DNA of 64,000 bases from Christensenellaceae bacterium (GTDB lineage: Bacteria; Bacillota; Clostridia; Christensenellales; UMGS416): assembly GCA_963676355.1 (NCBI GenBank), contig OY781093.1, positions 1,463,010 through 1,527,009 of the forward strand, in the 5' to 3' direction. Positions 7,901 through 64,000 of the stretch are shown piece after piece. Both the position numbers and the translations under genes were made by a program. Numbering within the stretch: position 1 is the first letter of the stretch; each line of letters opens with the position of its first letter. The notes beneath the pieces were generated by a model. That model ran no database searches. It was not told the origin of the DNA and was given only the letters and a program-made list of their open reading frames with translations.

Positions 7901-8750
7901 ATCTGTGATATATACTGGCGGCACAGCGAAAAAAGCGGGACTTTCGATTGCAAAGCCGCGTGTTTTTATCCCCGTATTCCCAGGAACTAACACCGAATAT
8001 GACACTGCAGCAGCATTTGAGCGCGCAGGCGCAAAAGCTGATGTGTTGATTATTAAAAATCTTCTTCCCGAGCATATTGAAGAGACGCTTTCAAAGATGA
8101 AGGCTATGATAGACAATGCGCAAATATTGATGCTGCCCGGCGGATTTTCCGCGGGTGACGAGCCTGAAGGGTCGGCTAAGTTTATCGCTGCGGCACTGCG
8201 TGCGCCAAGGATAAAAGATGCTGTTATGAATCTTCTAAAAAATCGCGACGGACTTGCACTTGGAATTTGCAACGGTTTCCAAGCACTTATTAAAACAGGG
8301 CTTGTGCCATATGGAGAGATACGCGATGCGAAAAAGGATTCGCCTACTTTGACTTTCAACTCGATAGGCCGACATCAAAGCAGGATAGTCCGTACCAAAG
8401 CTGTGAGCAATCTATCACCATGGATGGCAGGCGTTAACACAGGTGATATTATAAGCGTTGCAATATCACATGGAGAAGGACGATTTGTGTGCACAGAAGA
8501 GGAGTTTGAATCATTGTCTAAAAACGGACAGATAGCATGGCAATATGTAGACATGGAGGGCAACCCGACATATGACATAGACTTTAATCCCAATGGTTCA
8601 ATCCACGCTGTAGAAGGAATCACATCGCCTGACGGCCGTGTGATGGGCAAGATGGGGCACAATGAACGCTGGACTGAAAACACATTCCGCAATGTCCCTG
8701 GAGAATATGACAGCGGAATATTCAAATCGGGTGTTAATTACTTTAAATAA
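4995..8750 (+). CDS. purL: phosphoribosylformylglycinamidine (FGAM) synthase, single-chain large form with C-terminal glutaminase
   Basis: The 1251-aa product has PurL N-terminal, linker and AIRS-like domains, and a C-terminal class-I glutamine amidotransferase domain (LGICNGFQAL). The start is TTG behind a GGGGGA RBS, 11 nt after the aspartokinase stop. Confidence 0.95.
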   Translation: MGSVKRVFVEKKSGFDGERKHLLSNLKRQLHIDGLKSVRIFIRYDVQGLDDKQFNLAVKNVFSEPPMDNVYIEELPKAEGDFFAVEYLPGQYDQRADSAAQCIEFLTQSEKPQIRCATVYLVNSGLSDDELKAIKNYIINPVDSHEAVLEKYDNLDMETFEPDDVEVMEGFTLLSDEEISALRDELGLAMSSDDLKFVRDYFKQQKREPKITEIKVIDTYWSDHCRHTTFLTQLGEIEIEDSPALARAKEALKSYHEARDFVYGKMKADRPVSLMDIATMGVRLLKRKGLIPDLDESEEVNACSIKIDVDVNGEIQPYLLMFKNETHNHPTEIEPFGGAATCLGGAIRDPLSGRSYVYQAMRVTGGSDPRVDVKDTIEGKLPQRTISTVAAKGYSSYGNQIGLATGQVSEIYDDGFMAKHMEIGAVIAAAPAENVVRERPQPGDVIVLLGGRTGRDGIGGATGSSKAHDVESIDTCGAEVQKGNPPTERKIQRLFRNFEVSKMIIRCNDFGAGGVCVAIGELSDSLEIDLDKVRKKYEGLDGTEIAISESQERMAVVIKPESVKRFIELSDEENLEAYTVAKVTDTGRLIMKWRGNEILNIERSFLDTNGMPQYSNAKIMSPDESISPFSQKPQQGSVEQRWIDAISGINACSQRGLSEMFDSTIGAGTVIMPFGGVYQLTPAQAMASKIPVLDGETNTCSVMAYGYEPKIARYSPFHGGVYAVIESLLRMACAGADVSGARLTFQEYFERLRDDITRWGKPAAALLGAYEAQCALNAPSIGGKDSMSGSFEDLDVPPVLCSFAVTTAKASDIISAEFKRKDSTLVLINLPVDENNLPNYEEFSDMCAKISKAVRKGRVLAAHTIGAGGLAAALTKMSVGNKIGAELFVDEDDIFKPHWSSVVAEVKSGEVPDTAVCGLDYDVIGITNDSGMITACDMKLAVDEAVDILQGTLEDVYPVKEEVDDSEIKSVIYTGGTAKKAGLSIAKPRVFIPVFPGTNTEYDTAAAFERAGAKADVLIIKNLLPEHIEETLSKMKAMIDNAQILMLPGGFSAGDEPEGSAKFIAAALRAPRIKDAVMNLLKNRDGLALGICNGFQALIKTGLVPYGEIRDAKKDSPTLTFNSIGRHQSRIVRTKAVSNLSPWMAGVNTGDIISVAISHGEGRFVCTEEEFESLSKNGQIAWQYVDMEGNPTYDIDFNPNGSIHAVEGITSPDGRVMGKMGHNERWTENTFRNVPGEYDSGIFKSGVNYFK

Positions 8751-8757
8751 GAATAAC

Positions 8758-8787
8758 AAAAAGGCCTTCTTGCAAGGCCTTTTTTTA
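8758..8787 (+). terminator. rho-independent terminator after purL
   Basis: A GC stem (aaaaaggcc...ggccttttt) followed by a T7 run. Confidence 0.7.
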
Positions 8788-8882
8788 TGAGCAAAATTCA
8801 CTGTTTGTTCAAAAAAAAGTAAACTACTTTTACCACTTTTGTGAGATAATAAAAATGCAATTAATTAATAAGCGAGGTCACT

Positions 8883-9545
8883 ATGAACGACATTATTCAA
8901 TTTACACCTGCGTTTTTTAAAGATTGGCGCGATTTGCAGTTAATTCACAAGTTCGCACTACAAGAGATTGAAACCAAAGTAAACATTTTAAACGAAGAGT
9001 TTCAATATATAAAAGAATATAATCCAATTGAACATATAAAAACCCGTGTCAAGGACAGGGATTCCATAAGAAGAAAACTTAAAAGAAAAGGCTATGAGCC
9101 AAATATAAAAAATGCTGCAAGATATGTTTATGATATCGCAGGTCTTAGGATAATCTGCTCATTTAAAGATGATATATTCACGGTTGCTAAAATGATAGAA
9201 AAGCAAGATGATATTGAGGTCATAAAGATATTAGATTATGTGACACATCCAAAAGCAAATGGATACCAGAGCTATCATATGATTGTAACCATTCCAGTGT
9301 TTTTAAGCACGATTACAGAACGCGTGACAGTGGAGATACAGATTAGGACTTCAGCCATGGATTTTTGGGCCAGCCTTGAGCATAAAATCAACTACAGGTA
9401 TAATAATAAAGCACCACAGGAGCTTTTAACGCGACTGAGTGAGTGTGCAGAGATATCTTCGGAGCTGGATGATAAGATGGCAGGCATCAAAGAGAGCATT
9501 ATTGCAATAAAAGGCTCTGAGATGGATGGAATATTGTTAAGCTAA
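8883..9545 (+). CDS. small alarmone synthetase, (p)ppGpp synthetase of the RelP/RelQ (YjbM/YwaC) type
   Basis: It carries the SAS motifs DIAGLRIIC, GYQSYHMIV and EIQIRTSAMDFWASLEHKINYRY. At 220 aa it is single-domain, with no hydrolase or regulatory domains. Confidence 0.9.
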   Translation: MNDIIQFTPAFFKDWRDLQLIHKFALQEIETKVNILNEEFQYIKEYNPIEHIKTRVKDRDSIRRKLKRKGYEPNIKNAARYVYDIAGLRIICSFKDDIFTVAKMIEKQDDIEVIKILDYVTHPKANGYQSYHMIVTIPVFLSTITERVTVEIQIRTSAMDFWASLEHKINYRYNNKAPQELLTRLSECAEISSELDDKMAGIKESIIAIKGSEMDGILLS

Positions 9546-9546
9546 T

Positions 9547-10530
9547 CTATGCGATTTGGGATTCCAGCAATTTTTCGTCTACCCATTTTTCAAACTCTTC
9601 TTTTGCAAGACCTAATTGCAAGTAAGCGTTTTTCAATTTGAAATATGTTTTCCAATATTCAGGGTGGTGGTTGCCCAATGTTGAAACTTTGATTTTAAGG
9701 GATTTAATAAGAAGAGCCATTGCATCATCCAATTTGCCCATTTCTAGATTAACGCAAGCTATATAGTGCTGGCAGCTGGCTATGTCAGGATGTATTTTTA
9801 GCTTTTTGCTTCTAATAATGAGCGATTTTTCAAGGCATTCAAGTGCCGACTCATATTTGTTTTGAACATATAGTGCTACACCTAAATTAAAATAGGATAG
9901 CGCAATAACCTTTTCAATATTTTGATCATCCTTTTCAAATATTGAAATTGCTTTTCTGTACATTGCAACTGATTTTTTGTATTTTTTCTGATTGTCATAG
10001 ACAATAGCAATGTTAAGGTAACATTTAGCAAGGCTTGTATTTTCATTATTGCTTGACTCTAAAATCTCACTAGCTTTAAGATAATAATGAAGAGCAGCAT
10101 CATATCTTTTTAACGACTCATTGAGGTTACCCAAAGTGTTGTAAAATGATGCAGCTTCAGATGGATTACTTGATATTAGGTTATCATAATGATCCTTGGC
10201 CTTTATAATATAGTCTTCGGCTTTTAATGGAGATGATAGATGTATGTATGATTTACCTATCTTCATAAACGTGTCTGCGGCCATAGAGGAATTTTCGCCA
10301 TATGTTTTTTCAACGTAAGGAAGTGATTTTAAATATATTGACAATCCTTTATCATACTCATCATTGCGATAATAATTATCGGCAGTCTCTATGGATTTTA
10401 AAGCTTCTAATCTTTGGCTTTTGCGTACCAAATAAATAGCTAATACGCTGATTGCTAAGATTGTTATAGATGCTAAAGCAATTATGATAAAGTCATTAAT
10501 ATTAAAATTCATATATACAAAAAATAGCAT
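9547..10530 (-). CDS. membrane-anchored tetratricopeptide (TPR) repeat protein
   Basis: It has an N-terminal TM helix (FIIIALASITILAISVLAIYLV) followed by multiple 34-aa TPR-like repeats (Y..LG..Y....Y..A...Y.KA). Confidence 0.7.
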   Translation of the reverse strand: MLFFVYMNFNINDFIIIALASITILAISVLAIYLVRKSQRLEALKSIETADNYYRNDEYDKGLSIYLKSLPYVEKTYGENSSMAADTFMKIGKSYIHLSSPLKAEDYIIKAKDHYDNLISSNPSEAASFYNTLGNLNESLKRYDAALHYYLKASEILESSNNENTSLAKCYLNIAIVYDNQKKYKKSVAMYRKAISIFEKDDQNIEKVIALSYFNLGVALYVQNKYESALECLEKSLIIRSKKLKIHPDIASCQHYIACVNLEMGKLDDAMALLIKSLKIKVSTLGNHHPEYWKTYFKLKNAYLQLGLAKEEFEKWVDEKLLESQIA

Positions 10531-53759: not shown

Positions 53760-55169
53760 ATGAATAAGACGAACAGACAAAAAACTCGCTATATAAACCT
53801 TGCTTTGGGATTTGTTATTTTCATAGCATTTTTATTATTGCTTCCAAAAGATATTTTCTTATTTGAGGCAAGAGTCGCACTTGCGACACTCATATTAATG
53901 ATTTATTGGTGGATCACAAGGCCTGTGCACATAGCGGTTACGGCACTTTTGCCTATTATAGCTAATAGCTTGTTTGCAGTAGTCCCTATGGCTAATGTTC
54001 TTTCAAATTACGCTTCACAGATTGTGGTATTACTTTTGGGCGCAAACATTCTTACGCTTACATGGAAGACCACAGGGCTTGACAGACGCATTGCGCTCAA
54101 GTCACTTGGTGTGATTGGCACATCGATTAAAAAACAATTGATTGTGTGGTTTTTGCTGTCGGTTTTGCTGTCGGCTGTTCTCCCGAATGCGGTGGTGGCT
54201 GCGGCACTGTGTCCTATAGCATACGCTATGGTGGCCTATCTGGGAGATGATGGCGCAAAGCATAAAAAAATCCTTAACATGATCCTTCTTATGATAGTGT
54301 GGGGAGCGGGATTAGGAGGCTTTGGAACGCCATTGGGTGGAGCAATGAACCTTGTTGCAATTACGCACATCGAAAGCTTTACAGGGCAGGAATTCATGTT
54401 TATAAAGTGGACCTTGTTGATGCTTCCATATCTTGCGCTTTTATCACTTGCGATTGTAATATACATCATTTTTTCCAAGCAAGAAATAAAAACTTTGCCT
54501 GGCTCACATGATTATTTCATTAACAGCTATAAAGAGATGGGCAGGACAACAAAGTCACAAAAGATTGCTTTTATTCTGTTTTTAATACCGGTGGTGCTTT
54601 CTTTTGCGCGTCCTTTTTACTCAGCATATTTGCCGGAGTTTAAGCCTTTTTTCGCATTCTTACTGTTTGGATTTATAGCGCTTTTGGTAAACGGAGAAAA
54701 AGGCGAGAGGCTTATAACTTTTACTTATGCTCAAAAGCATATAAACTGGGGGCTTATGATTCTCTTTTCAGGAGGGCTTGCAATAGGCAATGTGCTGATT
54801 GCAACGGGAGTGTTGGAGAGCATATCAAAGCTTATAGCGACATCAGACATTGTAGGCGTATTGCCAATAATTCTTGTGATAGTTGCTTTTTCGATGTTTT
54901 TATCCAATACGTCAAGCAACACCGCGGCGGTTGCTGTCGCTGTGCCGCTTGTGATCGGTATAGTGTCGGTTATAAGCGATGTACCGCTTAAATATGTATA
55001 CTTAACGGCAGCCGCGTGCAATTGCGCATTCTTGCTGCCAACATCTATAAGGGCTATCCCGGTGGGATATGGACTGGACACAAAGTTTATGCTAAAGAAA
55101 GGAATGGCGGGGGTAATAATTACCTTCCTAGTTATAGCCATATATGGCTATATATCTGTTATAATATAG
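53760..55169 (+). CDS. DASS/SLC13-family anion:Na+ symporter
   Basis: It has about 12 TM helices and hairpins. The duplicated SNT signature reads FLSNTSSNTAAVAVAV, with the first-half counterpart GGFGTPLGGAMNLVAI. Confidence 0.75.
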   Translation: MNKTNRQKTRYINLALGFVIFIAFLLLLPKDIFLFEARVALATLILMIYWWITRPVHIAVTALLPIIANSLFAVVPMANVLSNYASQIVVLLLGANILTLTWKTTGLDRRIALKSLGVIGTSIKKQLIVWFLLSVLLSAVLPNAVVAAALCPIAYAMVAYLGDDGAKHKKILNMILLMIVWGAGLGGFGTPLGGAMNLVAITHIESFTGQEFMFIKWTLLMLPYLALLSLAIVIYIIFSKQEIKTLPGSHDYFINSYKEMGRTTKSQKIAFILFLIPVVLSFARPFYSAYLPEFKPFFAFLLFGFIALLVNGEKGERLITFTYAQKHINWGLMILFSGGLAIGNVLIATGVLESISKLIATSDIVGVLPIILVIVAFSMFLSNTSSNTAAVAVAVPLVIGIVSVISDVPLKYVYLTAAACNCAFLLPTSIRAIPVGYGLDTKFMLKKGMAGVIITFLVIAIYGYISVII

Positions 55170-55171
55170 TT

Positions 55172-55402
55172 ATGGAAAAAGATATTAAGATAATTGATTG
55201 CTTTGGGGATATATGCCCAATCCCAATCTTAAAGATAGAGCAGGAGCTTTCTCACATGAAAAGTGGGGATTCATTTATGATTGTGGTGGACCACAGTTGC
55301 ACGATTGAGGCAATCAGAAACAAATACTACGATAAAATACATGATGTGAAAATTGAGGAGGTTATGAACGGTGTGTGGGAGGTTGTTTTTACTATAAAGT
55401 AA
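55172..55402 (+). CDS. TusA-like sulfurtransferase (SirA/YedF/YeeD family)
   Basis: The 77-aa product starts MEKDIKIIDCFGDICPIPIL, with the CPxP active-site motif. It starts 2 nt after the DASS stop. The ORF-track extension back to 55016 overlaps the permease and is rejected. Confidence 0.8.
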   Translation: MEKDIKIIDCFGDICPIPILKIEQELSHMKSGDSFMIVVDHSCTIEAIRNKYYDKIHDVKIEEVMNGVWEVVFTIK

Positions 55403-55409
55403 TTTCGCT

Positions 55410-56306
55410 TCAGCAAAAACTTGCTTCGCCGTTTTCCTTAAACCATTCTAAAAATGTTTCCACATGTTCAGTGTGGAGCTTTTTGTATAACAAAAATATG
55501 TCTAAATTTATATCAAGGCCTGAGATTTTAACTTCCTTGAACTGCTTTTTGTATAGTTCCTCTTTGACTGAGATGTAGGGGAGAAACGCCATGCCGTAGC
55601 CACTGCTTATCATCATTTTGGCGCCGACAATTCCTTCAACGCGAAGGTTGCAGTTGAGATTGTTTCTGGGAATTCCCAAGTTTTCAAGCTTCTTAAAAAT
55701 GATTTCATTGATGTCTGTTTTGCCTGTGAGTGTGATAAGGCATATGTCTGCAAGCCCTTGAAGGGATATTGAATCTGGATGATCTGAGTTATTAGGGGCA
55801 GCCAGTATTATTTTGTTAAAACCCGCTCTTTGACACAAAACGCCATCATATCCGTTTGGAGTTTCCATATAGGAAAACCCGACATCACATATATTGTTTG
55901 CAACATTTTGAAGTATAACGTAGGAGGGATTGCTTGAAAGCTCATATTTATGCAATTGATATTTATTATTGGCTTTAATCATGGTGCAGGGAAGAGCATA
56001 GTCTGCAAGTGAAGAGGGAGCTTCTATCTTAATTATAATGTTTTTCTTTGATTCGCTTTCAATCTCTTCCATCATATGGTCATATGTTCGCAGGATGTTG
56101 TCTGCAAATTTATATACAATTTTTCCGTCAGGAGTAAGCTGTACGCCTTTATTTGAGCGAATAAGCAGCTTCTTTTTAAAATCTGTTTCAAGTCTTTGAA
56201 TTTGTTGGGACAGAGCGGATTGTGAAAGGTGCACACTTTTTGCGACAGAGCTAATATTGCCTGCCTTGGCTATCATATAAAAATATTTTAAAGATTCTAT
56301 ATTCAA
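55410..56306 (-). CDS. LysR-family transcriptional regulator
   Basis: It has the HTH (SVAKSVHLSQSALSQQIQRLE) and a substrate-binding domain. The likely TTG start at 56306 gives MNIESLKYF. The ORF-track start is at 56381. It is divergent from the yeeE operon. Confidence 0.8.
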   Translation of the reverse strand: MNIESLKYFYMIAKAGNISSVAKSVHLSQSALSQQIQRLETDFKKKLLIRSNKGVQLTPDGKIVYKFADNILRTYDHMMEEIESESKKNIIIKIEAPSSLADYALPCTMIKANNKYQLHKYELSSNPSYVILQNVANNICDVGFSYMETPNGYDGVLCQRAGFNKIILAAPNNSDHPDSISLQGLADICLITLTGKTDINEIIFKKLENLGIPRNNLNCNLRVEGIVGAKMMISSGYGMAFLPYISVKEELYKKQFKEVKISGLDINLDIFLLYKKLHTEHVETFLEWFKENGEASFC

Positions 56307-56439
56307 GATACACCCAAATTCATAGTCTCTGTTATGTTCGATATTAATGGATATTATAGCACCAAAGCCTGCTATTAACAAATCTAATACAGTATAAGAA
56401 AACAGATTGATAGATTTTTAACAAAGTATGATAAAATAT

Positions 56440-56487: not shown

Positions 56488-57195
56488 ATGTCAGAAAGCA
56501 CAATCAGAACTTCTTCCAGAGCTTCAAGCAGAAAACGCAAAAAAAGAATGAATCAGATACCCATAGCATTGGGACTTATTGTGATTATTGTTGTAATAGG
56601 TGTTCTATTGACTCTGAGAGGCGAGAACCTTGGACTATATTGGATGACGGGTTTGGCTTTTGGTTTTATCCTGCAGCGTGCACGTTTTTGCTTCACTGCA
56701 TCAATGCGCGATCCATACCTTACAGGTTCAACAACTGTAACGCGTGCAGTGCTTATAGCGTTTGCTATAACTTCAATCGCATTTACTGCAATTAAATACG
56801 GAGCGTTTTTAAAAGGGATGCCAATTCCAGGGCAGAGCTATGTAGCTCCGATATCAATTGCAACAGGCATAGGAGCATTTATGTTTGGTGTGGGAATGGT
56901 AATCGCCGGCGGATGTGCTTCGGGAACTTTGATGAGAATCGGAGAAGGCTTCTGGATGCAGCTTCTATCGCTTTTCTTCTTTGTGGTGGGCTCGCTTTGG
57001 GGAGCGCATGACTATGGATGGTGGTATCGCAACTTTATAGTAAGCGGCAAGAGAGTGTTCCTTCCGGATGTGTTTACAAAATTGTTTAACTCAACATCAT
57101 TTGGCTGGTTTGGCGGCCTTATGTGTAACCTTCTTATAATAGCAGTGATTTATGTGCTGGCGCATAAATGGGAAAATCGAAAAAAAGAGGATTAA
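56488..57195 (+). CDS. YeeE/YedE-family sulfur-compound transporter, N-terminal half-protein
   Basis: It has the conserved Cys motifs ILQRARFCFTAS and IAGGCASGT in re-entrant helices, and a basic N-terminal tail. Confidence 0.8.
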   Translation: MSESTIRTSSRASSRKRKKRMNQIPIALGLIVIIVVIGVLLTLRGENLGLYWMTGLAFGFILQRARFCFTASMRDPYLTGSTTVTRAVLIAFAITSIAFTAIKYGAFLKGMPIPGQSYVAPISIATGIGAFMFGVGMVIAGGCASGTLMRIGEGFWMQLLSLFFFVVGSLWGAHDYGWWYRNFIVSGKRVFLPDVFTKLFNSTSFGWFGGLMCNLLIIAVIYVLAHKWENRKKED

Positions 57196-57236: not shown

Positions 57237-57464
57237 ATGAGTAAAGAAGTAGTATTGGATTGCTTGGGCGAGGCTTGCCCTGTGCCACTTATCAAAGCAG
57301 AAAAAGAATTGGAAAAACTTGAATCAGGCGATGTTCTTATCGTTCAGATCGACCACAGCTGTGCAATGAAAAATGTTCCGGAATGGGCACGCAAAAAGGG
57401 ACATGAAGTGGAGCTTGAAGAAGTGGACGACGGCGAATGGGAATGCATCATAGAAAAAGCATAA
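57237..57464 (+). CDS. TusA-like sulfurtransferase (YeeD/TsuB-like)
   Basis: The 75-aa product starts LDCLGEACPVPLIKAEKEL, with the CPxP motif. It is inserted between the two YeeE halves. Confidence 0.85.
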   Translation: MSKEVVLDCLGEACPVPLIKAEKELEKLESGDVLIVQIDHSCAMKNVPEWARKKGHEVELEEVDDGEWECIIEKA

Positions 57465-57490: not shown

Positions 57491-58048
57491 GTGAGAAACT
57501 TGAAGAAATTTTTTGACAAAATAAAACAGAATGAGTTCTACAAGATATGGTTTAAAAAAGCATTACCATATGTTGCAGGAGCAGTGCTTTTGTCAGTGTT
57601 CCAGATTGTGACTTTTACGACAACAGGCAATCCCTGGGGTGTTTCGGGTATATTTGCAAACTGGGGCGCATGGCTTTTTGAAGCTGTTGGCGGCTCGGTT
57701 GACAAATGGTTTTACTTTTCTTCACCCGGCGCGCAGGCAACTCTTGATGCAGGCTTTTTAAGCCATGCACCAACGTGGAGAAACATAGGGATAATATTTG
57801 GTGCGCTTTTTGCTGCACTTATGGCTTCAGGTTTCAAATTAAAGAAAATTAAGTCATTTAAGCAAGTTGCTGCTGCAACATTGGGCGGCCTTCTCATGGG
57901 ATATGGAGCAAGAATTGCATTTGGATGCAATATTGGCGCTCTGTTTTCAGGAATTGCTTCCTTGTCGCTTTCAGGCTGGGTATTTGCCCTGTTCATGTTT
58001 GGCGGCGCTGTGGTCGGCAGCAAACTTTTAGTTAAATACTTTATGTAA
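57491..58048 (+). CDS. YeeE/YedE-family transporter, C-terminal half-protein
   Basis: It has the third conserved Cys motif GARIAFGCNIGALFSG and 4-5 TM segments. Confidence 0.8.
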   Translation: MRNLKKFFDKIKQNEFYKIWFKKALPYVAGAVLLSVFQIVTFTTTGNPWGVSGIFANWGAWLFEAVGGSVDKWFYFSSPGAQATLDAGFLSHAPTWRNIGIIFGALFAALMASGFKLKKIKSFKQVAAATLGGLLMGYGARIAFGCNIGALFSGIASLSLSGWVFALFMFGGAVVGSKLLVKYFM

Positions 58049-58059
58049 AGGACTTTATT

Positions 58060-59292
58060 ATGGCTAGAGAAAAAAAAGTAGAACAATATGATGTCGTTAT
58101 TGTCGGCGGAGGAGCTTCAGGGCTTACAGCCGGAATATACTGCGGAAGAGCTAAACTTAAAACACTTATAGTTGAGCAGGCTTTGGTGGGCGGCATTGCA
58201 ACTAATACAAATGACATTGAAAATTATCCGGGATTTCCGGAAGGAATATCAGGAATTGACCTTATGAACCTTTTTAAAGAGCAGGCAAAAAGATTCGGAG
58301 TGAAATTCAAGCTCACAAATGTGAAAACTGTGGATTTTTCAGGCGATATAAAAATCCTTGAAACATTCAGAAACAGATATGAAGCAAAATCTGTGATAAT
58401 CGCAAATGGATCAAAGCCAAGGGTTTTGGGCATTGACAGCGAAGAACAGTTCATTGGAAAAGGAATCGCTTTTTGCGCCACATGCGACGCAGCTGCAAAT
58501 ACGGGCAAAGAAGTTGTTGTTATAGGCTCAGGCGATGCGGCAATAGAAGAAGGAATGTTCCTTACTAAGTTTGCCAGCAAAGTTACAGTTTCCGTGCTTC
58601 ATGATGAAGGCGTTATGGACTGCAACGAGATTGCAAAAGCGGCAGCTCTTGCAAACCCTAAGATGGAATTTAAGTGGAATACAGTGGTTGATGAATATAT
58701 CGGCGGCGAAGAGCTTGAAGCTGTAAACCTAAAAAATCTTAAAACAGGCGAAATAGAGCGTATAGACTGCGCCACATGCTTCTTATTTATAGGATTTGTG
58801 CCGAACACAAATATATACAAGGACATAGTTAAAATGACTGACCGCGGATATGTTATAACTGATGAGGAAATGCGCACTAATATTCCGGGCGTGTTTGCAG
58901 CAGGCGATGTTCGCGACAGATTCCTAAGACAGGTTGCAACTTGTGTAGGTGACGCGGCTACAGCAGGTGTTATGGCTGAAAAGTATATCGCAGAAAGCGA
59001 AATATTTGAACATCAGATCATGATGGGCGACGGCATTGCATATGTATATGACGCGGTAAACAAAGACCAAAGAGAGTTTTTGTCTGTCATTGAAGAGATA
59101 GAAGCACTTTATGAAAACCATGGTTGTCATAAGGTGGACACATATAAATCAAAAGGCTTGGCAGCGCGCCTAGGATGTGAAGACTGCCCGGCTGTTGTCA
59201 TCATAAAAGACGGCAAAATATATGAGACGTTGTCTGAAGATGAGCTCAGCAAAGAAGAAATCATTGCTGCCATAAAAGCTTCAAAGGAGTAA
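58060..59292 (+). CDS. thioredoxin-disulfide-reductase-like flavoprotein fused to a C-terminal thioredoxin-fold (monothiol) domain
   Basis: It has the FAD site GGGASGLTAG, the CATC redox disulfide and the NAD(P) site VIGSGDAA. A ~95-aa C-terminal extension has Trx-like beta-alpha topology (HGCHKVD...CPAVVIIKDGKIYE) but no CxxC. Confidence 0.75.
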   Translation: MAREKKVEQYDVVIVGGGASGLTAGIYCGRAKLKTLIVEQALVGGIATNTNDIENYPGFPEGISGIDLMNLFKEQAKRFGVKFKLTNVKTVDFSGDIKILETFRNRYEAKSVIIANGSKPRVLGIDSEEQFIGKGIAFCATCDAAANTGKEVVVIGSGDAAIEEGMFLTKFASKVTVSVLHDEGVMDCNEIAKAAALANPKMEFKWNTVVDEYIGGEELEAVNLKNLKTGEIERIDCATCFLFIGFVPNTNIYKDIVKMTDRGYVITDEEMRTNIPGVFAAGDVRDRFLRQVATCVGDAATAGVMAEKYIAESEIFEHQIMMGDGIAYVYDAVNKDQREFLSVIEEIEALYENHGCHKVDTYKSKGLAARLGCEDCPAVVIIKDGKIYETLSEDELSKEEIIAAIKASKE

Positions 59293-59296
59293 TATC

Positions 59297-60190
59297 GTGA
59301 AAAAGAGAATGCTAATAATCCTTATCGCATTAATAATTGTTTCGTTTTCAGCTTGCGCAAATTTTGACTTTGCACAAACGGGTGATTACATCGTTACACC
59401 CAAACAAGCTGAGGCACTCATTAATGACGGTGTGACTGTTGTTGATGTGCGAAGTGCCGAAGACTATGGCTTAGGCCATGTCGCAGGGGCTGTAAACATA
59501 CCAATGAGCACACTTACAGTTAGTGAGCCATATGCAAACATGCTTCCTGATGCGGCTCAAGTGGAAGAAGTTATGAGTGCGGCAGGCATATCGCAAACTG
59601 ATGAACTTTTGGTTTATGATGATGCAAAAAACATGCAAGCAGCCCGCGTGCAGTGGACGCTCAACATGTATTCAAACTTCAATGTGCGTGTGATAAGCGG
59701 TGGGGTTAAAGCACTCAAAGAGCAGGGAGTTGATTTCGATTCTAACAGCGTAGAGCTTGAAACAGTTGAATATAGCGCTGGTGATTATCAGAAGTCATTA
59801 ATTGTTAATCTTGACTATTTGAAATCCGTCATTAACATGCCGGATGAAAACACTGTGATTATAGACACCCGCAGCGATGATGAATATTATGCTGGGACGA
59901 TTCCCAGCGCATGCCACATAGAATATGTTTGGAATATGTATGCAAACGGTGAGTACAAAACACCGCGCGACATACAAAGCACATATCTGGCAGAGGGCAT
60001 AAAGCCCGAAATGAAAATTATCCTGTTTTGCAAAACATCAGTAAGAGCTGCCCAAACATATGCAGCACTTAAAGATGCAGGATATGAAGATGTAAGGATA
60101 TATGACGGTGCTTGGTTGGAATATGAGGATGTTGAAAATCCTCAGCCACCGTCGGAAAATATCACACCCACGAGGCAAGACGCTTCGTAA
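59297..60190 (+). CDS. lipoprotein thiosulfate/3-mercaptopyruvate sulfurtransferase-type tandem rhodanese
   Basis: It has a lipobox (VSFSAC). The N-terminal domain is an inactive rhodanese and the C-terminal domain carries the catalytic loop CKTSVRA. The GTG start is behind an AGGAG RBS and overlaps the trxR-like stop. Confidence 0.8.
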   Translation: MKKRMLIILIALIIVSFSACANFDFAQTGDYIVTPKQAEALINDGVTVVDVRSAEDYGLGHVAGAVNIPMSTLTVSEPYANMLPDAAQVEEVMSAAGISQTDELLVYDDAKNMQAARVQWTLNMYSNFNVRVISGGVKALKEQGVDFDSNSVELETVEYSAGDYQKSLIVNLDYLKSVINMPDENTVIIDTRSDDEYYAGTIPSACHIEYVWNMYANGEYKTPRDIQSTYLAEGIKPEMKIILFCKTSVRAAQTYAALKDAGYEDVRIYDGAWLEYEDVENPQPPSENITPTRQDAS

Positions 60191-60205: not shown

Positions 60206-61786
60206 ATGAAAAAATTATTAGTAATCCTTATGGCTGCAATCATGGTTTTCGCCGTGACAGCATGCTCAGGAGGAAACGCACTTGAAAGCGCAGCCAATGA
60301 CTATTTTGCGCAATATCCAGGCAGTCGCATAATAACTTGGGACGACCTTTTCGCTAAAATTGACGCAGGAGATGAACCTTTCATCCTAAGCATTCGTCAA
60401 AGCGACGTTTACAATGAAGGTCATATCGTTGGTGCATATCTTGCATCTTGGGGAACGGATTTGGCAGAAAAAGTTTCAATGCTTCCTAAAGACGAACCTG
60501 TTTATGTATATTGCTATTCAGGACAGACAGCAGGACAGACAGTTGCACTTATGAATATCCTAGGAATCGAAGCTTATTCAGTAAAATCAGGCTATAACTT
60601 GGGCGCCTCAAAAACAGAAGGCTTTGAAGCTTATGTTGAAACAGAAGCAAATGAGCTTCCTGATGCAGGCGCAAAATTTGATAAAGCAGTTTTGGAATTT
60701 GCACAAGAATATTTCAACACTGTAGCTGATAATTCTAACAACATCATGGCAGCAAGTGCCGCCGCTCCATTGATTGAAGCTGGTGACCTTACTGTTATGG
60801 ATATCCGCAAAGCAGACGACTACAATGCAGGCCACATCGAAGGCGCAGTAAACGTACCTTTCGGCGAAGGCATGCAGGAAAAATTTGCAGACTTTGAAGG
60901 CAAAAAAATCATCGTTGCTTGCTATTCAGGACAAACAGCAGGACAGACAGTTGGCGTGCTTCGTGCACTTGGCTATGACGCTATATCACTTAAAAGCGGC
61001 ATGGGCGGCTGGACAAGCTATGTGAAAACTGCTGCCGCAGATGCATATTTTGCACCTGAGTTTGCAAACCCAATGATTTCATGGGAAGCACTTTTTGAGA
61101 AAATGGACGCAGGCGAAGAGCTTAACATAGTTTCTATCCGTCAGCAGGACGTATATGACGAAGGTCACATCAAAGGCGCAGTTCTTGCTTCTTGGGGTGC
61201 AGACCTCGCTGAAAAAGTTTCAATGCTTCCTACAGACGAGCCTGTTTATGTATATTGCTATTCAGGACAGACAGCAGGACAGGCAACAGCACTTATGCGC
61301 ATGCTTGGAATTGAAGCATACTCTGTTAAGTCAGGATACAATGTAGGCGCTACAGCAGTTGAAGGCTATGAAGCTTATACTGAAACAGCAGCAAATGAAA
61401 TAGCTGATGCAGGCGCAAGCTTTGATGCAGTTCTTTTAAAAGAAGTTGAATCATATTTCACAGCAGTAACTGACAATGCAAACTTCAAAATCGGCTGGGA
61501 TGACGCTCAGGCAGCAGTTGATGCCGGAGAAGCAACAGTTATTGATATTCGTAAAGCAGATGACTTTGCAGCAGGACATATCGTAAACGCTATAAACATA
61601 CCTTTCGGCGAAAGCATGGACTTTAGCGAATTGCCAGAAGGCAAATTAATCGTAGCTTGCTATACAGGACAGACAGCAGGACAGACAACAGCAGTTCTTC
61701 GTATGCTTGGTCATGACGCAGTATCTCTTCACTTTGGCATGACTGCCGGTTGGATTAAAGAAGGATATCCGGTAGTAACTGACTAG
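60206..61786 (+). CDS. lipoprotein with four rhodanese domains, each with a catalytic Cys loop (CYSGQTAGQ / CYTGQTAGQ)
   Basis: It has a lipobox (AVTAC|SGG). The four repeats each have the VY(V/A)CYSGQTAGQT loop. Domain pairs 1-2 and 3-4 are near-identical. Confidence 0.8.
   Translation: MKKLLVILMAAIMVFAVTACSGGNALESAANDYFAQYPGSRIITWDDLFAKIDAGDEPFILSIRQSDVYNEGHIVGAYLASWGTDLAEKVSMLPKDEPVYVYCYSGQTAGQTVALMNILGIEAYSVKSGYNLGASKTEGFEAYVETEANELPDAGAKFDKAVLEFAQEYFNTVADNSNNIMAASAAAPLIEAGDLTVMDIRKADDYNAGHIEGAVNVPFGEGMQEKFADFEGKKIIVACYSGQTAGQTVGVLRALGYDAISLKSGMGGWTSYVKTAAADAYFAPEFANPMISWEALFEKMDAGEELNIVSIRQQDVYDEGHIKGAVLASWGADLAEKVSMLPTDEPVYVYCYSGQTAGQATALMRMLGIEAYSVKSGYNVGATAVEGYEAYTETAANEIADAGASFDAVLLKEVESYFTAVTDNANFKIGWDDAQAAVDAGEATVIDIRKADDFAAGHIVNAINIPFGESMDFSELPEGKLIVACYTGQTAGQTTAVLRMLGHDAVSLHFGMTAGWIKEGYPVVTD
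60380..61760 (+). repeat. intragenic tandem duplication (~744-bp period) inside the tetra-rhodanese gene
   Basis: For example, 60470-60545 (aaagtttcaatgcttcc...cctgtttatgtatattgctattcaggacagacagcaggacag) recurs at 61214-61289 with few substitutions. The ggacagacagcaggacagac core occurs four times. Confidence 0.75.
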
Positions 61787-61844: not shown

Positions 61845-61881
61845 GACCCCTTCGGCATATGACCGTCGGGGTCTTTTGTTT
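61845..61881 (+). terminator. rho-independent terminator after the rhodanese operon
   Basis: The sequence is gacccc-ttcggcatatgaccgtc-ggggtc followed by ttttgttt. Confidence 0.65.
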
Positions 61882-61987: not shown

Positions 61988-62605
61988 ATGGACAATACAA
62001 AAGTGCAGCTCAAAAAATATTATGATAAGTATGCCAATGACAGAAACATGAGCCAAAAGCATCAATGGAAGATAGACTTACGTGACACATTCCTTAAAGA
62101 AATGAAAAAGGAAGGTTGTCGTGAATTGCTGGAGGTCGGAGTCGGTACTGGTCAGGATAGCTTGGTTTTTATGGAAAACGGGCTCAATGTTAAAGCTATT
62201 GATTTGTCTCAGGAGCATGTGAGGATATGCAAAACCAAAGGCATTGAGGCTCATGTGATGGACATGATGGATATGTCTTTTGAAGATAGTTGTTTTGACT
62301 GCATTTATACCCTAAACTGCCTTTTGCACATACCAAAAAATTCTCTATCCAAAGCGTTTAACGAGTTTTCGCGAGTACTAAAATCAGGCGGATATATGTT
62401 TATCTGTCAATATGGAAATAAGGAAGAAGACGATGAAGGTATAAAGAATTTTGATGGCAAAGGTGAGCGGTTTTTTGCGTTTAGAACTGTTGAATCGTTT
62501 CTTGAGATAGTTAATGAGACGGGAATAAAGGTTATAAAATCCGGTGTATTGGATGTCGGCTTTGACACATCAGAAGTGCAATATTTTATATTGAAAAAAA
62601 GTTGA
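61988..62605 (+). CDS. class I SAM-dependent methyltransferase
   Basis: It has SAM motif I (LEVGVGTGQDS) and post-I acidic motif II (KAIDLS). Confidence 0.8.
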   Translation: MDNTKVQLKKYYDKYANDRNMSQKHQWKIDLRDTFLKEMKKEGCRELLEVGVGTGQDSLVFMENGLNVKAIDLSQEHVRICKTKGIEAHVMDMMDMSFEDSCFDCIYTLNCLLHIPKNSLSKAFNEFSRVLKSGGYMFICQYGNKEEDDEGIKNFDGKGERFFAFRTVESFLEIVNETGIKVIKSGVLDVGFDTSEVQYFILKKS

Positions 62606-62612
62606 AATTATA

Positions 62613-64000
62613 ATGAAGTTTATGAATAAAGAAAAGAAAAACTATACTTTTATTATTGGATTAGCCGTCTATTTTATAGCAGGTCTTTTGTTTCTTCAAA
62701 AATTTCCATTCATGCACTCGGATGAGTCGTGGCTTTCAGGACTTACTCGCACCATGATGCATAGCGGACTGGACTCCACAGAGACTTTTTTTGACCTGCT
62801 CCCTCGATATCCACATGCGATAAAAACACTGTTTCATCTCGTTCAGATGCCGTTTATTCTTATATTCGGATACAATCTGTTTGCGGTGCGGCTTGTATCA
62901 TTGATTTTTTCGTGTGCGGCAATTTATATTATTTATAAAATTGCATATAGCTTTTCACAATCTAAAAATTTTTCAGATATTGCAGCAGTTGCTGTGGCAT
63001 TTGATGTGCAGTTTAAATATGCCTCGCATTTTGCACGGCAGGAGATAATAATTGCTTTTGGGATGCTTTTGGCAATATATTATATTTATAAAAGTATCGC
63101 TTCATGGTCGCTTAAAAACGATGTTATCGCAGGCGCTATAGTAGGGCTAATGATAGGCATTCATCCCAATTCATTCATAGCCGCGCTTTCCGTGGGAAGC
63201 ATTTATTTATATTACATAATTGTAGATAAGAAGATTACGTTTAAGAACCTCTTTACATTAATAGGTGTGGTTTCCTTGTTTGCCGCAATATTTGTTGGGG
63301 TGAGCTATATTTTTGATGGGCAGTTTATTTCTCACTATTTAAAGTATGGAGACCATCTTGGGGTTACACAGACATTTGGGGAGAAAGTACAGTCAATAGT
63401 GCCTTTTTATCAAAAGCTGTGGATGGGGATATCGGGAACATACTACACTCCTTGGATAAAAATACAGCTTGTGCTATTTGGTGTGACAATTATAGGCGCA
63501 GCTATATATGCGCACTGGAATAAGCAGGTTTTGCTTTTTATATTCCCAATTATTGCAGTAAATGTTGGATATATAGTAATCGGGCGATACTCACAGCCTT
63601 CGATACTTCTAATGTTTATAGTATGTTGGATGCTTGTTATATTCCTTTTAAGCCGTATAAAGAAATTTAAAACCGTAGTATCAGCTATACTTGCTTTTGC
63701 AATGCTAGTGTCGTCTGCGATGCAAATTTCACCTTACATAAATGATGATTATAAGCAGTATTTAAAGAGTATAAACGATAGCGTTCCGCAAGATGCAAGG
63801 GTGCTTGCGAATCTAAATGCTGAGTACGCTTTTTCATATGATAGGCTATATGATTATAGAAACTTGGGATATCTGGACGACAATGAGCTGAGTTTCAAAG
63901 ACTATGTGAAATCAAACCACATTGAGTATATAATATATCCTGAAGAGATGGATTATATCTATGAAAGCAGGCCCGTCTGGAACATAGTATATGGCAATAT
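62613..64000 (+). CDS. GT-C-fold membrane glycosyltransferase (ArnT/PMT/GT39-like), N-terminal ~460 aa; the gene continues past the window end
   Basis: The frame is open from the ATG at 62613 to the window end. It has many TM helices and the first-loop acidic motif (HSDESW) typical of GT-C lipid-linked-sugar transferases. It is missing from the ORF track because no stop falls in the window. Confidence 0.55.
   Translation, partial: MKFMNKEKKNYTFIIGLAVYFIAGLLFLQKFPFMHSDESWLSGLTRTMMHSGLDSTETFFDLLPRYPHAIKTLFHLVQMPFILIFGYNLFAVRLVSLIFSCAAIYIIYKIAYSFSQSKNFSDIAAVAVAFDVQFKYASHFARQEIIIAFGMLLAIYYIYKSIASWSLKNDVIAGAIVGLMIGIHPNSFIAALSVGSIYLYYIIVDKKITFKNLFTLIGVVSLFAAIFVGVSYIFDGQFISHYLKYGDHLGVTQTFGEKVQSIVPFYQKLWMGISGTYYTPWIKIQLVLFGVTIIGAAIYAHWNKQVLLFIFPIIAVNVGYIVIGRYSQPSILLMFIVCWMLVIFLLSRIKKFKTVVSAILAFAMLVSSAMQISPYINDDYKQYLKSINDSVPQDARVLANLNAEYAFSYDRLYDYRNLGYLDDNELSFKDYVKSNHIEYIIYPEEMDYIYESRPVWNIVYGN

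Follow-up and report, generated by a model that had tools for sequence, protein, structure and literature searches.

The described rhodaneses that come closest to the protein considered here are the single-domain enzymes GlpE and PspE of Escherichia coli, which carry a single catalytic Cys in a six-residue loop, the classical tandem rhodaneses (bovine TST, Azotobacter vinelandii RhdA and E. coli SseA/MST), and the four-rhodanese protein 1yt8 of Pseudomonas aeruginosa. On the side of sulfur import, the YeeE/YeeD (TsuA/TsuB) and YedE1E2 systems have no described extracellular rhodanese partner. Here, we compare with them a gene at positions 60206 to 61786 of the forward strand of a 64,000-nucleotide (nt) stretch of DNA from a Christensenellaceae bacterium (assembly GCA_963676355.1, contig OY781093.1, positions 1,463,010 to 1,527,009), hereafter called the window. 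The gene encodes a lipoprotein with four rhodanese domains, Rhd4, which belongs to a large uncharacterised family and is an ordinary and well-conserved representative of it. According to our analysis, Rhd4 probably combines an old duplication of a two-domain unit with the role of a lipid-anchored array of four rhodanese sites, capturing sulfane sulfur outside the cell for the YeeE importer encoded in the same operon.

Anatomy of Rhd4 and its relation to described rhodaneses

The open reading frame encodes 526 amino acids (aa) and is preceded by an AAAGGA ribosome-binding site 8 nt 5′ of its ATG. Its features, and the terminator that follows it, are as follows.

60206 to 61786, + strand: Rhd4 gene, four-domain rhodanese lipoprotein, 526 aa (open reading frame, Pfam, AlphaFold2 model, Foldseek)
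60206 to 60265, + strand: signal peptide and lipobox (…AVTAC, Cys20), read from the sequence
60287 to 61030, + strand: Unit 1, made up of domains D1 (60287-60655) and D2 (60656-61030), from self-alignment
61031 to 61783, + strand: Unit 2, made up of domains D3 (61031-61399) and D4 (61400-61783), from self-alignment
60512 to 60538, + strand: active-site loop 1, CYSGQTAGQ, Cys103 (motif, invariant across the family)
60920 to 60946, + strand: active-site loop 2, CYSGQTAGQ, Cys239 (motif)
61256 to 61282, + strand: active-site loop 3, CYSGQTAGQ, Cys351 (motif)
61658 to 61684, + strand: active-site loop 4, CYTGQTAGQ, Cys485 (motif)
61850 to 61880, + strand: terminator-like hairpin and T-run closing the operon (GC-rich hairpin, then TTTTGTTT)

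The N terminus, MKKLLVILMAAIMVFAVTAC, consists of MKK, a hydrophobic core and a VTAC lipobox, of which Cys20 is invariant in 12 diverse homologues (set A1) and conserved to at least 90% in a set of 60 (A2), with LVGC, MAAC and LVAC as lipobox variants among the homologues. Rhd4 is predicted to be a lipid-anchored extracytoplasmic protein. The Pfam Rhodanese model (PF00581) matches it in four stretches with a total of 183 bits, against a cutoff of 22. An AlphaFold2 model built with 60 homologues is confident throughout, with a mean predicted local distance difference test score (pLDDT) of 94.2 and a predicted template modelling score (pTM) of 0.86, and a Foldseek search of this model against the PDB returned rhodanese proteins as sole matches. 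All four loops are of the six-residue CxxGx[R/T] type (CYSGQT in three and CYTGQT in one) and are invariant in 60 homologues. The protein holds five Cys residues, namely, that of the lipobox and those of the four loops, and exactly five are also found in 101 of the 107 family members of 515 to 610 aa. All four domains are therefore deemed, by prediction, to be catalytically competent single-Cys rhodaneses. This agrees with an earlier note, made from the sequence of this DNA alone, which had described a lipid-anchored protein of four rhodanese domains that all keep the catalytic Cys loop and had proposed that the active-site residues be counted by alignment; the count gives the four loop Cys listed above. 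The note's wording of all four loops as CYSGQTAGQ applies to three of them but not to the fourth.

GlpE (NF001195) and PspE (NF007627) are the best NCBIfam matches of Rhd4, at 100.7 bits summed over the four domains and 71 bits, respectively, with cutoffs of 102, and PspE (2jtq) is also among its PDB sequence matches. PspE is periplasmic, as Rhd4 is predicted to be extracytoplasmic. However, GlpE and PspE consist of a single domain, whereas Rhd4 joins four in one lipid-anchored chain, and to our knowledge the CY[ST]GQTAGQ loop is not a feature of either. With the classical tandem rhodaneses, Rhd4 shares the tandem rhodanese fold, the Foldseek matches to 1rhd, 1e0c and 1urh having E values of about 1e-7. 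The N-terminal domain of the classical proteins is without the Cys, whereas every domain of Rhd4 has one; the loop sequence differs as well, and the global superposition is poor, with template modelling (TM) scores of about 0.22 (query) and about 0.4 (target) and a root mean square deviation of about 10 Å. It is the gene directly upstream (59297-60190), encoding the lipoprotein Rhd2, that is of the classical type, with Asp at the Cys position of its first domain and an active second domain (CKTSVRA); the earlier note had likewise read it as having one inactive domain.

The P. aeruginosa protein 1yt8 is the best PDB match of Rhd4 both by sequence (E = 5e-10) and by fold (E = 2.5e-15), but three of its four aligned domains have no Cys at the loop position. 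E. coli YnjE, which has three domains, is periplasmic and has one active domain. The identity of Rhd4 to 1yt8 and YnjE is 14 to 16% with TM scores of 0.19 to 0.23, the arrangement of the domains is not shared, and the architecture does not superpose on that of 1yt8, YnjE or EanB (TM about 0.2). Extracytoplasmic handling of chalcogens, to which that of Rhd4 may be likened, is represented by ExtH of Geobacter, a rhodanese-like lipoprotein of the outer surface, and by Sud of Wolinella, a periplasmic polysulfide-sulfur transferase. Both belong to Gram-negative hosts, have other partners (cytochrome conduits and polysulfide reductase, respectively) and are not four-domain arrays. ExtH was the sole "rhodanese-like lipoprotein" that our literature search returned, and Rhd2 matches it weakly (39 bits). 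We rejected the assignment of Rhd4 or its operon to the GlpE, PspE, TsuA, YedE or rhoda_near_glyco families, since all scores lie under the curated cutoffs.

Age and divergence of the two units

Rhd4 contains a direct repeat with a spacing of 744 nt. Over positions 60329 to 60628, the DNA identity at offset 744 is 0.74, whereas at the other in-frame offsets the mean is 0.286 (standard deviation, 0.029; maximum, 0.40). D1 and D3 are 71% identical, D2 and D4 54% and D1 and D2 47%; since the first two pairs are closer than the third, the repeated unit is the didomain. The earlier note's proposal that a tandem duplication of about 744 nt, comprising two domains, gave rise to the gene is thus borne out. 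The copies have diverged considerably, with 74 to 76% DNA identity in the repeat blocks, about 74% in the best 300 nt and 56% when the entire 744-nt offset is compared without gaps. The two protein halves (aa 28 to 275 and 276 to 526) are 62.5% identical. By the Nei-Gojobori method, Unit 1 and Unit 2 differ at a proportion of synonymous sites (pS) of 0.53 to 0.54, with a saturated synonymous divergence (dS) of about 0.9 and a nonsynonymous divergence (dN) of 0.29 to 0.30. Tandem Repeats Finder reported no array, which says little, since the longest period that it considers is 500 nt; this null result is partly a limit of the tool, and the divergence of the copies contributes to it too. An assembly artefact was rejected because an assembler cannot collapse or expand copies at 74% identity.

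The closest relatives of Rhd4, which are 88 to 89% identical to it, are encoded in Christensenellaceae metagenome-assembled genomes (MAGs) and share its four domains, their order and its operon. In comparison with these orthologues, dS is saturated (0.87 to 1.05) and dN is 0.07; the dN between the two units of Rhd4 (0.30) is four times as high. When 104 four-domain homologues were split into N- and C-terminal halves and the resulting 208 halves were placed in a neighbour-joining tree, the nearest neighbour was the same-position half of another protein in 193 cases and the half's own partner in 12, and the C-terminal half of the window's Rhd4 fell within a pure clade of 54 C-terminal halves (53 others). 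Of the 120 best homologues, 105 have four loops; among 80 species-level genomes, the four-loop form occurs in 71, and 470 relatives with the Rhd4-type loop were found in species-representative genomes. On these comparisons, a lipoprotein of four domains, all of them active, is the standard form in what is a large family. Since the four-domain form is the family norm and the C-terminal half clusters with 53 others, the two-unit duplication is judged to be old, preceding the split of at least 54 orthologues from several Clostridia families, and the duplicate units appear to have been retained under purifying selection.

The earlier note had instead inferred a very recent duplication from near-identity of domains 1-2 and 3-4 at the DNA level, citing positions 60470-60545 and 61214-61289. 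These segments are indeed alike, with 70 of 76 positions (92%) identical and a longest exact run of 42 nt, but the domains overall are not: the segments are the best part of a short island of high identity around loops 1 and 3, located as follows.

60467 to 60556, + strand: island of high DNA identity in D1, about 90 nt, about 90% identical to 61211-61300
61211 to 61300, + strand: partner of the island in D3 (pS comparison, codon counts)

Inside the island, pS is 0.08 to 0.14, versus 0.5 to 0.9 in its flanks, and 25 of the 26 identical residues are encoded by the same codon, where 12.9 would be expected from the codon usage of the operon (P<5e-5); in the remainder of the repeat, the same-codon count fits the expectation. 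D1 and D3 of the window differ at 3 of 21 synonymous sites in the island, the other D1/D3 pairs within and between the window and the orthologous loci L001 and L002 at 5 to 10 of 21, and the flanks are saturated (10 to 20 of 21). Recent gene conversion specific to the window was rejected as the sole cause, since the island is about equally alike among the D1 and D3 domains of three species. A universal constraint at the mRNA level was rejected too: across 72 family members, the median same-codon fraction in the island (0.61) is close to that in the rest of the gene (0.56), and the island stands out in few lineages (the window, L003, L012 and L072). The island is best read as a stretch around the active-site loop that has been homogenised locally in this clade, through gene conversion of short tracts and/or codon constraint; it does not appear to be the trace of a recent duplication of the whole unit.

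Beside the island, the D3 segment 5′ of loop 3 (61121-61210) shows only 3 to 7 synonymous differences per 21 sites between the window and L001 or L002, whereas the equivalent D1 segment (60377-60466) is saturated between species (15 to 19 of 21). Synonymous rates are therefore very uneven along Rhd4.

A very recent 744-bp tandem duplication in this lineage, unstable and with a domain number that varies between isolates, would account for the periodicity, for the 76-nt segment with its exact run and for the shared codons of the island, and it could appeal to the unit numbers seen elsewhere in the family, where genes of one, two and three units occur and units may be 96 to 100% identical. We nevertheless regard it as extremely unlikely, given the overall divergence of the units, the presence of both units in the same order in orthologues of other species, the grouping of the halves by position and not by genome, and the equal likeness of the patch between paralogous domains of different species. 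With about 74% identity and a longest exact run of 42 nt, Rhd4 is a poor substrate for recombination.

What a truly recent event looks like may be seen in L059, a locus in a Clostridia MAG (7911-10274) that encodes a six-domain homologue with three 819-nt units of 99% DNA identity and 100% protein identity; this is a triplication of recent date or may reflect a problem in the assembly of the MAG. Three-unit, six-domain proteins make up 7 of the 120 top homologues and occur in 3 to 4 of 80 genomes. At the other end, an Erysipelotrichaceae chromosome (L047, 7920-8942) has a one-unit, two-domain version in the same operon, with domains that resemble D1 (65%) and D2 (71%, versus 51% for D4) and a tail of the D4 type (PVVT[DE]). 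This mixture suggests a secondary loss of a unit by recombination, which would explain the D1- and D2-like domains together with the D4-type tail. Some four-domain genes have nearly identical halves (L048, 0.96; L064, 0.97; L029, 0.94), the identity of the halves within a Vallitalea genome (0.97) exceeds that between orthologues (0.84 to 0.88), and the half-protein tree requires about 15 changes from the N to the C position. These patterns indicate repeated duplication or concerted evolution in distant subfamilies. The recombinational copy-number variation that the earlier note foresaw thus appears to hold for the family over evolutionary time, but none of it applies to the gene in the window.

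The operon and the case for sulfur import

Rhd4 is the last of six + strand genes separated by gaps of 4 to 41 nt, and a single terminator follows it. The genes upstream of it are as follows.

55410 to 56381, − strand: divergent LysR-type regulator, upstream of the operon
56488 to 57195, + strand: first half of a split YeeE/YedE-type channel, 235 aa, with RARFCF and AGGCASG (equivalents of StYeeE C22 and C91)
57237 to 57464, + strand: TusA/YeeD-like sulfur carrier, 75 aa, GEACPVP (TusA, 86 bits)
57491 to 58048, + strand: second half of the split YeeE/YedE-type channel, 185 aa, with AFGCNIG (equivalent of StYeeE C293)
58060 to 59292, + strand: thioredoxin-reductase (TrxR)-like flavoprotein with a CATC motif (Pfam Pyr_redox_2)
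59297 to 60190, + strand: Rhd2, two-domain rhodanese lipoprotein with an inactive N-terminal domain and an active C-terminal domain (CKTSVRA)

In StYeeE of Spirochaeta thermophila, C22, C91 and C293 line the path of thiosulfate, and the pathway Cys residues are essential in a complementation assay with E. coli YeeE, although the C22A variant of StYeeE still complemented (PMC7449682). By alignment, all three are kept in the split channel of the window. The TusA-like protein YeeD is an essential partner of YeeE and decomposes thiosulfate on its conserved Cys (PMC11073785), and zero-valent sulfur is imported by two-gene YedE1E2 pairs (PMC10812762). The operon thus has the pathway cysteines and the small adjacent TusA-like partner in common with YeeE/YeeD. 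It differs from that system, in which YeeE is a single polypeptide of about 330 to 350 aa, in its split channel, a form known from YedE1E2, and it goes beyond it in having the TusA gene between the two channel halves, a TrxR-like reductase and two rhodanese lipoproteins. The carrier scores 49.5 on the TsuB/YeeD model (cutoff, 147.5). The TrxR-like protein reaches 321.6 bits on NCBIfam TRX_reduct (cutoff, 343) and carries, at its C terminus, an additional stretch of about 95 aa with CEDC, which weakly matches the C-terminal half of thioredoxin (Thioredoxin, E = 0.0014).

The orthologues of 88 to 89% identity share the same six genes and the LysR gene. More widely, a Rhd2-like gene adjoins Rhd4 in 76 of 80 loci and lies directly upstream in nearly all of them. 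Across 82 loci, which belong to several orders, linkage is seen for TusA in 48, for the YeeE halves in 42 to 43, for LysR in 41 and for TrxR in 37.

From the anatomy of the proteins and this context, we infer what the substrate is, which way the sulfur flows, which proteins are partners and what the reductase does. Rhd2 and Rhd4 would work together as lipoproteins anchored on the outside of the membrane of an anaerobic bacterium. There, sulfane sulfur from thiosulfate or polysulfide would be bound as Cys persulfides by Rhd2, which is TST-like, and by the four sites of Rhd4, which resemble those of GlpE and PspE. The split YeeE/YedE channel, which is co-transcribed, would receive the sulfur at its outer vestibule, the TusA-like carrier would accept it in the cytoplasm, and the TrxR-like flavoprotein would release sulfide that is assimilated or serves as an electron sink. 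The LysR regulator would couple expression of the operon to the sulfur status. Four sites on one anchored chain may provide a higher local capacity or allow a relay from site to site.

Alternatively, the same surface rhodaneses could supply an NAD(P)H-dependent reductase in the cytoplasm with thiosulfate or elemental sulfur, which would act as an electron sink for fermentation, or they could detoxify polysulfide, cyanide or reactive sulfur species. The co-transcribed TrxR-like flavoprotein fits such a dissimilatory or protective role, as does the presence of the family in Fusibacter and Dethiosulfatibacter, which are fermenters that reduce thiosulfate and sulfur. We consider it doubtful, however: the operon is without respiratory components, and the LysR regulator and the adjoining DASS transporter/TusA pair described below would seem to resemble sulfur-acquisition regulons more than respiratory ones. 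With regard to Rhd4 itself, this alternative shares the same extracellular capture mechanism.

The operon might also encode a selenium importer of the YedE/YedF type, in which the rhodanese array binds selenium as selenotrisulfide or perselenide. The two channel halves score better on NCBIfam selen_YedE_FdhT (99 and 97 bits) than on TsuA (73 and 56 bits), and rhodaneses and thioredoxin reductase both handle selenite. Yet the former scores are far under the 350-bit cutoff, just as the latter are below theirs of 400, the carrier is of the 75-aa YeeD/TusA type and not a two-domain YedF, and no selenium-utilisation genes were seen in the examined loci. The capacity of four sites and the adjoining sulfate-family transporter would also fit a macronutrient better than a trace element. 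Selenium import is thus deemed very unlikely, and capture of sulfane sulfur for the YeeE-type channel remains the explanation that we favour.

Just upstream of the divergent LysR gene, a transporter of the DASS/Na-sulfate-symporter family (53760-55169, +) is followed by a second small TusA-like gene (55172-55402, +). The two genes are conserved as a pair in 15 related loci and may constitute another TusA-coupled sulfur importer. In the entire window, Rfam at its gathering thresholds detected neither a riboswitch nor another RNA.

The downstream glycosylation genes and the meaning of the family

Beyond the terminator of the operon lies a gene for a membrane glycosyltransferase.

62610 to 64000, + strand: GT-C (PMT_2/ArnT-like) membrane glycosyltransferase, running off the end of the window (34.9 bits; cutoff, 26.1)

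In orthologous loci, the GT-C gene is followed by those for a DegT aminotransferase, a GT2 glycosyltransferase, an ATP-grasp enzyme resembling L-amino-acid ligases and an epimerase/dehydratase. GT-C is found near the rhodanese pair in, for example, the window, L001 to L004, L049 and L075; across 80 loci, the linkage to the pair amounts to 66 for GT-C, 49 for GT2, 48 for ATP-grasp and 47 for DegT, and the order and orientation of the genes in the module vary between orders. A gene for an S-adenosylmethionine-dependent methyltransferase (61988-62605, +) lies between Rhd4 and GT-C; it is found only in the window and in L002 and L003 (53% identity) and is therefore outside the conserved module.

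Several observations weigh against sulfur import as the function of Rhd4. The genes of the glycosylation module are linked to the rhodanese pair more often than YeeE is (43 of 82 loci), and many Rhd4 loci have no YeeE within 8 kb, so that sulfur import may not be the core partnership. To these may be added the channel halves, which score slightly better on the selenium-type YedE/FdhT model than on TsuA and pass neither cutoff, and a literature search on the Rhd4-type family (rhodanese lipoproteins, multi-rhodanese proteins), which found no paper describing it. It is in this last respect that the earlier note's view of all-active multi-domain rhodaneses as unusual can be upheld, although within the family such proteins are the rule.

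The linkage data are what one would expect if the rhodanese lipoproteins were functionally part of the glycosylation module, either as its dedicated targets or by acting on or with a surface amino-sugar conjugate that it makes, the YeeE link being secondary. A linkage that persists through varying gene order and orientation argues for selection, the window itself carries the GT-C gene, and Rhd4 matches the NCBIfam model NF045521 ("rhoda_near_glyco") with 69.9 bits, neighbouring glycosylation genes being present. That score is below the cutoff of 145, however, and we know of no chemistry that joins rhodaneses to lipid-linked sugars. Moreover, the loci of the wall-less Mariniplasma keep Rhd2, Rhd4, YeeE, TusA and TrxR while the glycosylation genes, GT-C included, are absent; the YeeE and glycosylation associations are therefore separable. 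A primary role in glycosylation seems unlikely to us, and if the rhodaneses were mere targets of the module, this would be compatible with sulfur capture for YeeE and not compete with it.

More speculatively, and with a small chance of being right, Rhd2, Rhd4, GT-C, GT2, DegT and ATP-grasp could together form a system of extracytoplasmic sulfur trafficking in anaerobic Gram-positive bacteria that has so far gone unrecognised. The surface acceptor or carrier for the sulfane sulfur of the rhodaneses would then be a lipid-linked amino sugar decorated with an amino acid and possibly bearing a thiol, and recurrent duplication, loss and gene conversion would tune the number of units (one, two or three didomains).

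For the gene in the window, the attractive idea of a duplication that is fresh and unstable fails, whereas the family and the conserved module around it are of moderate interest. The capture of extracellular thiosulfate, polysulfide or elemental sulfur upstream of YeeE-type channels in anaerobic Gram-positive bacteria is previously undescribed. If the relay from surface rhodaneses to the channel is true, the Rhd4 family would fill a gap at the start of sulfane-sulfur import in these organisms, namely the step that takes place outside the cell, and would also be a natural example of the multiplication of active sites on one chain.

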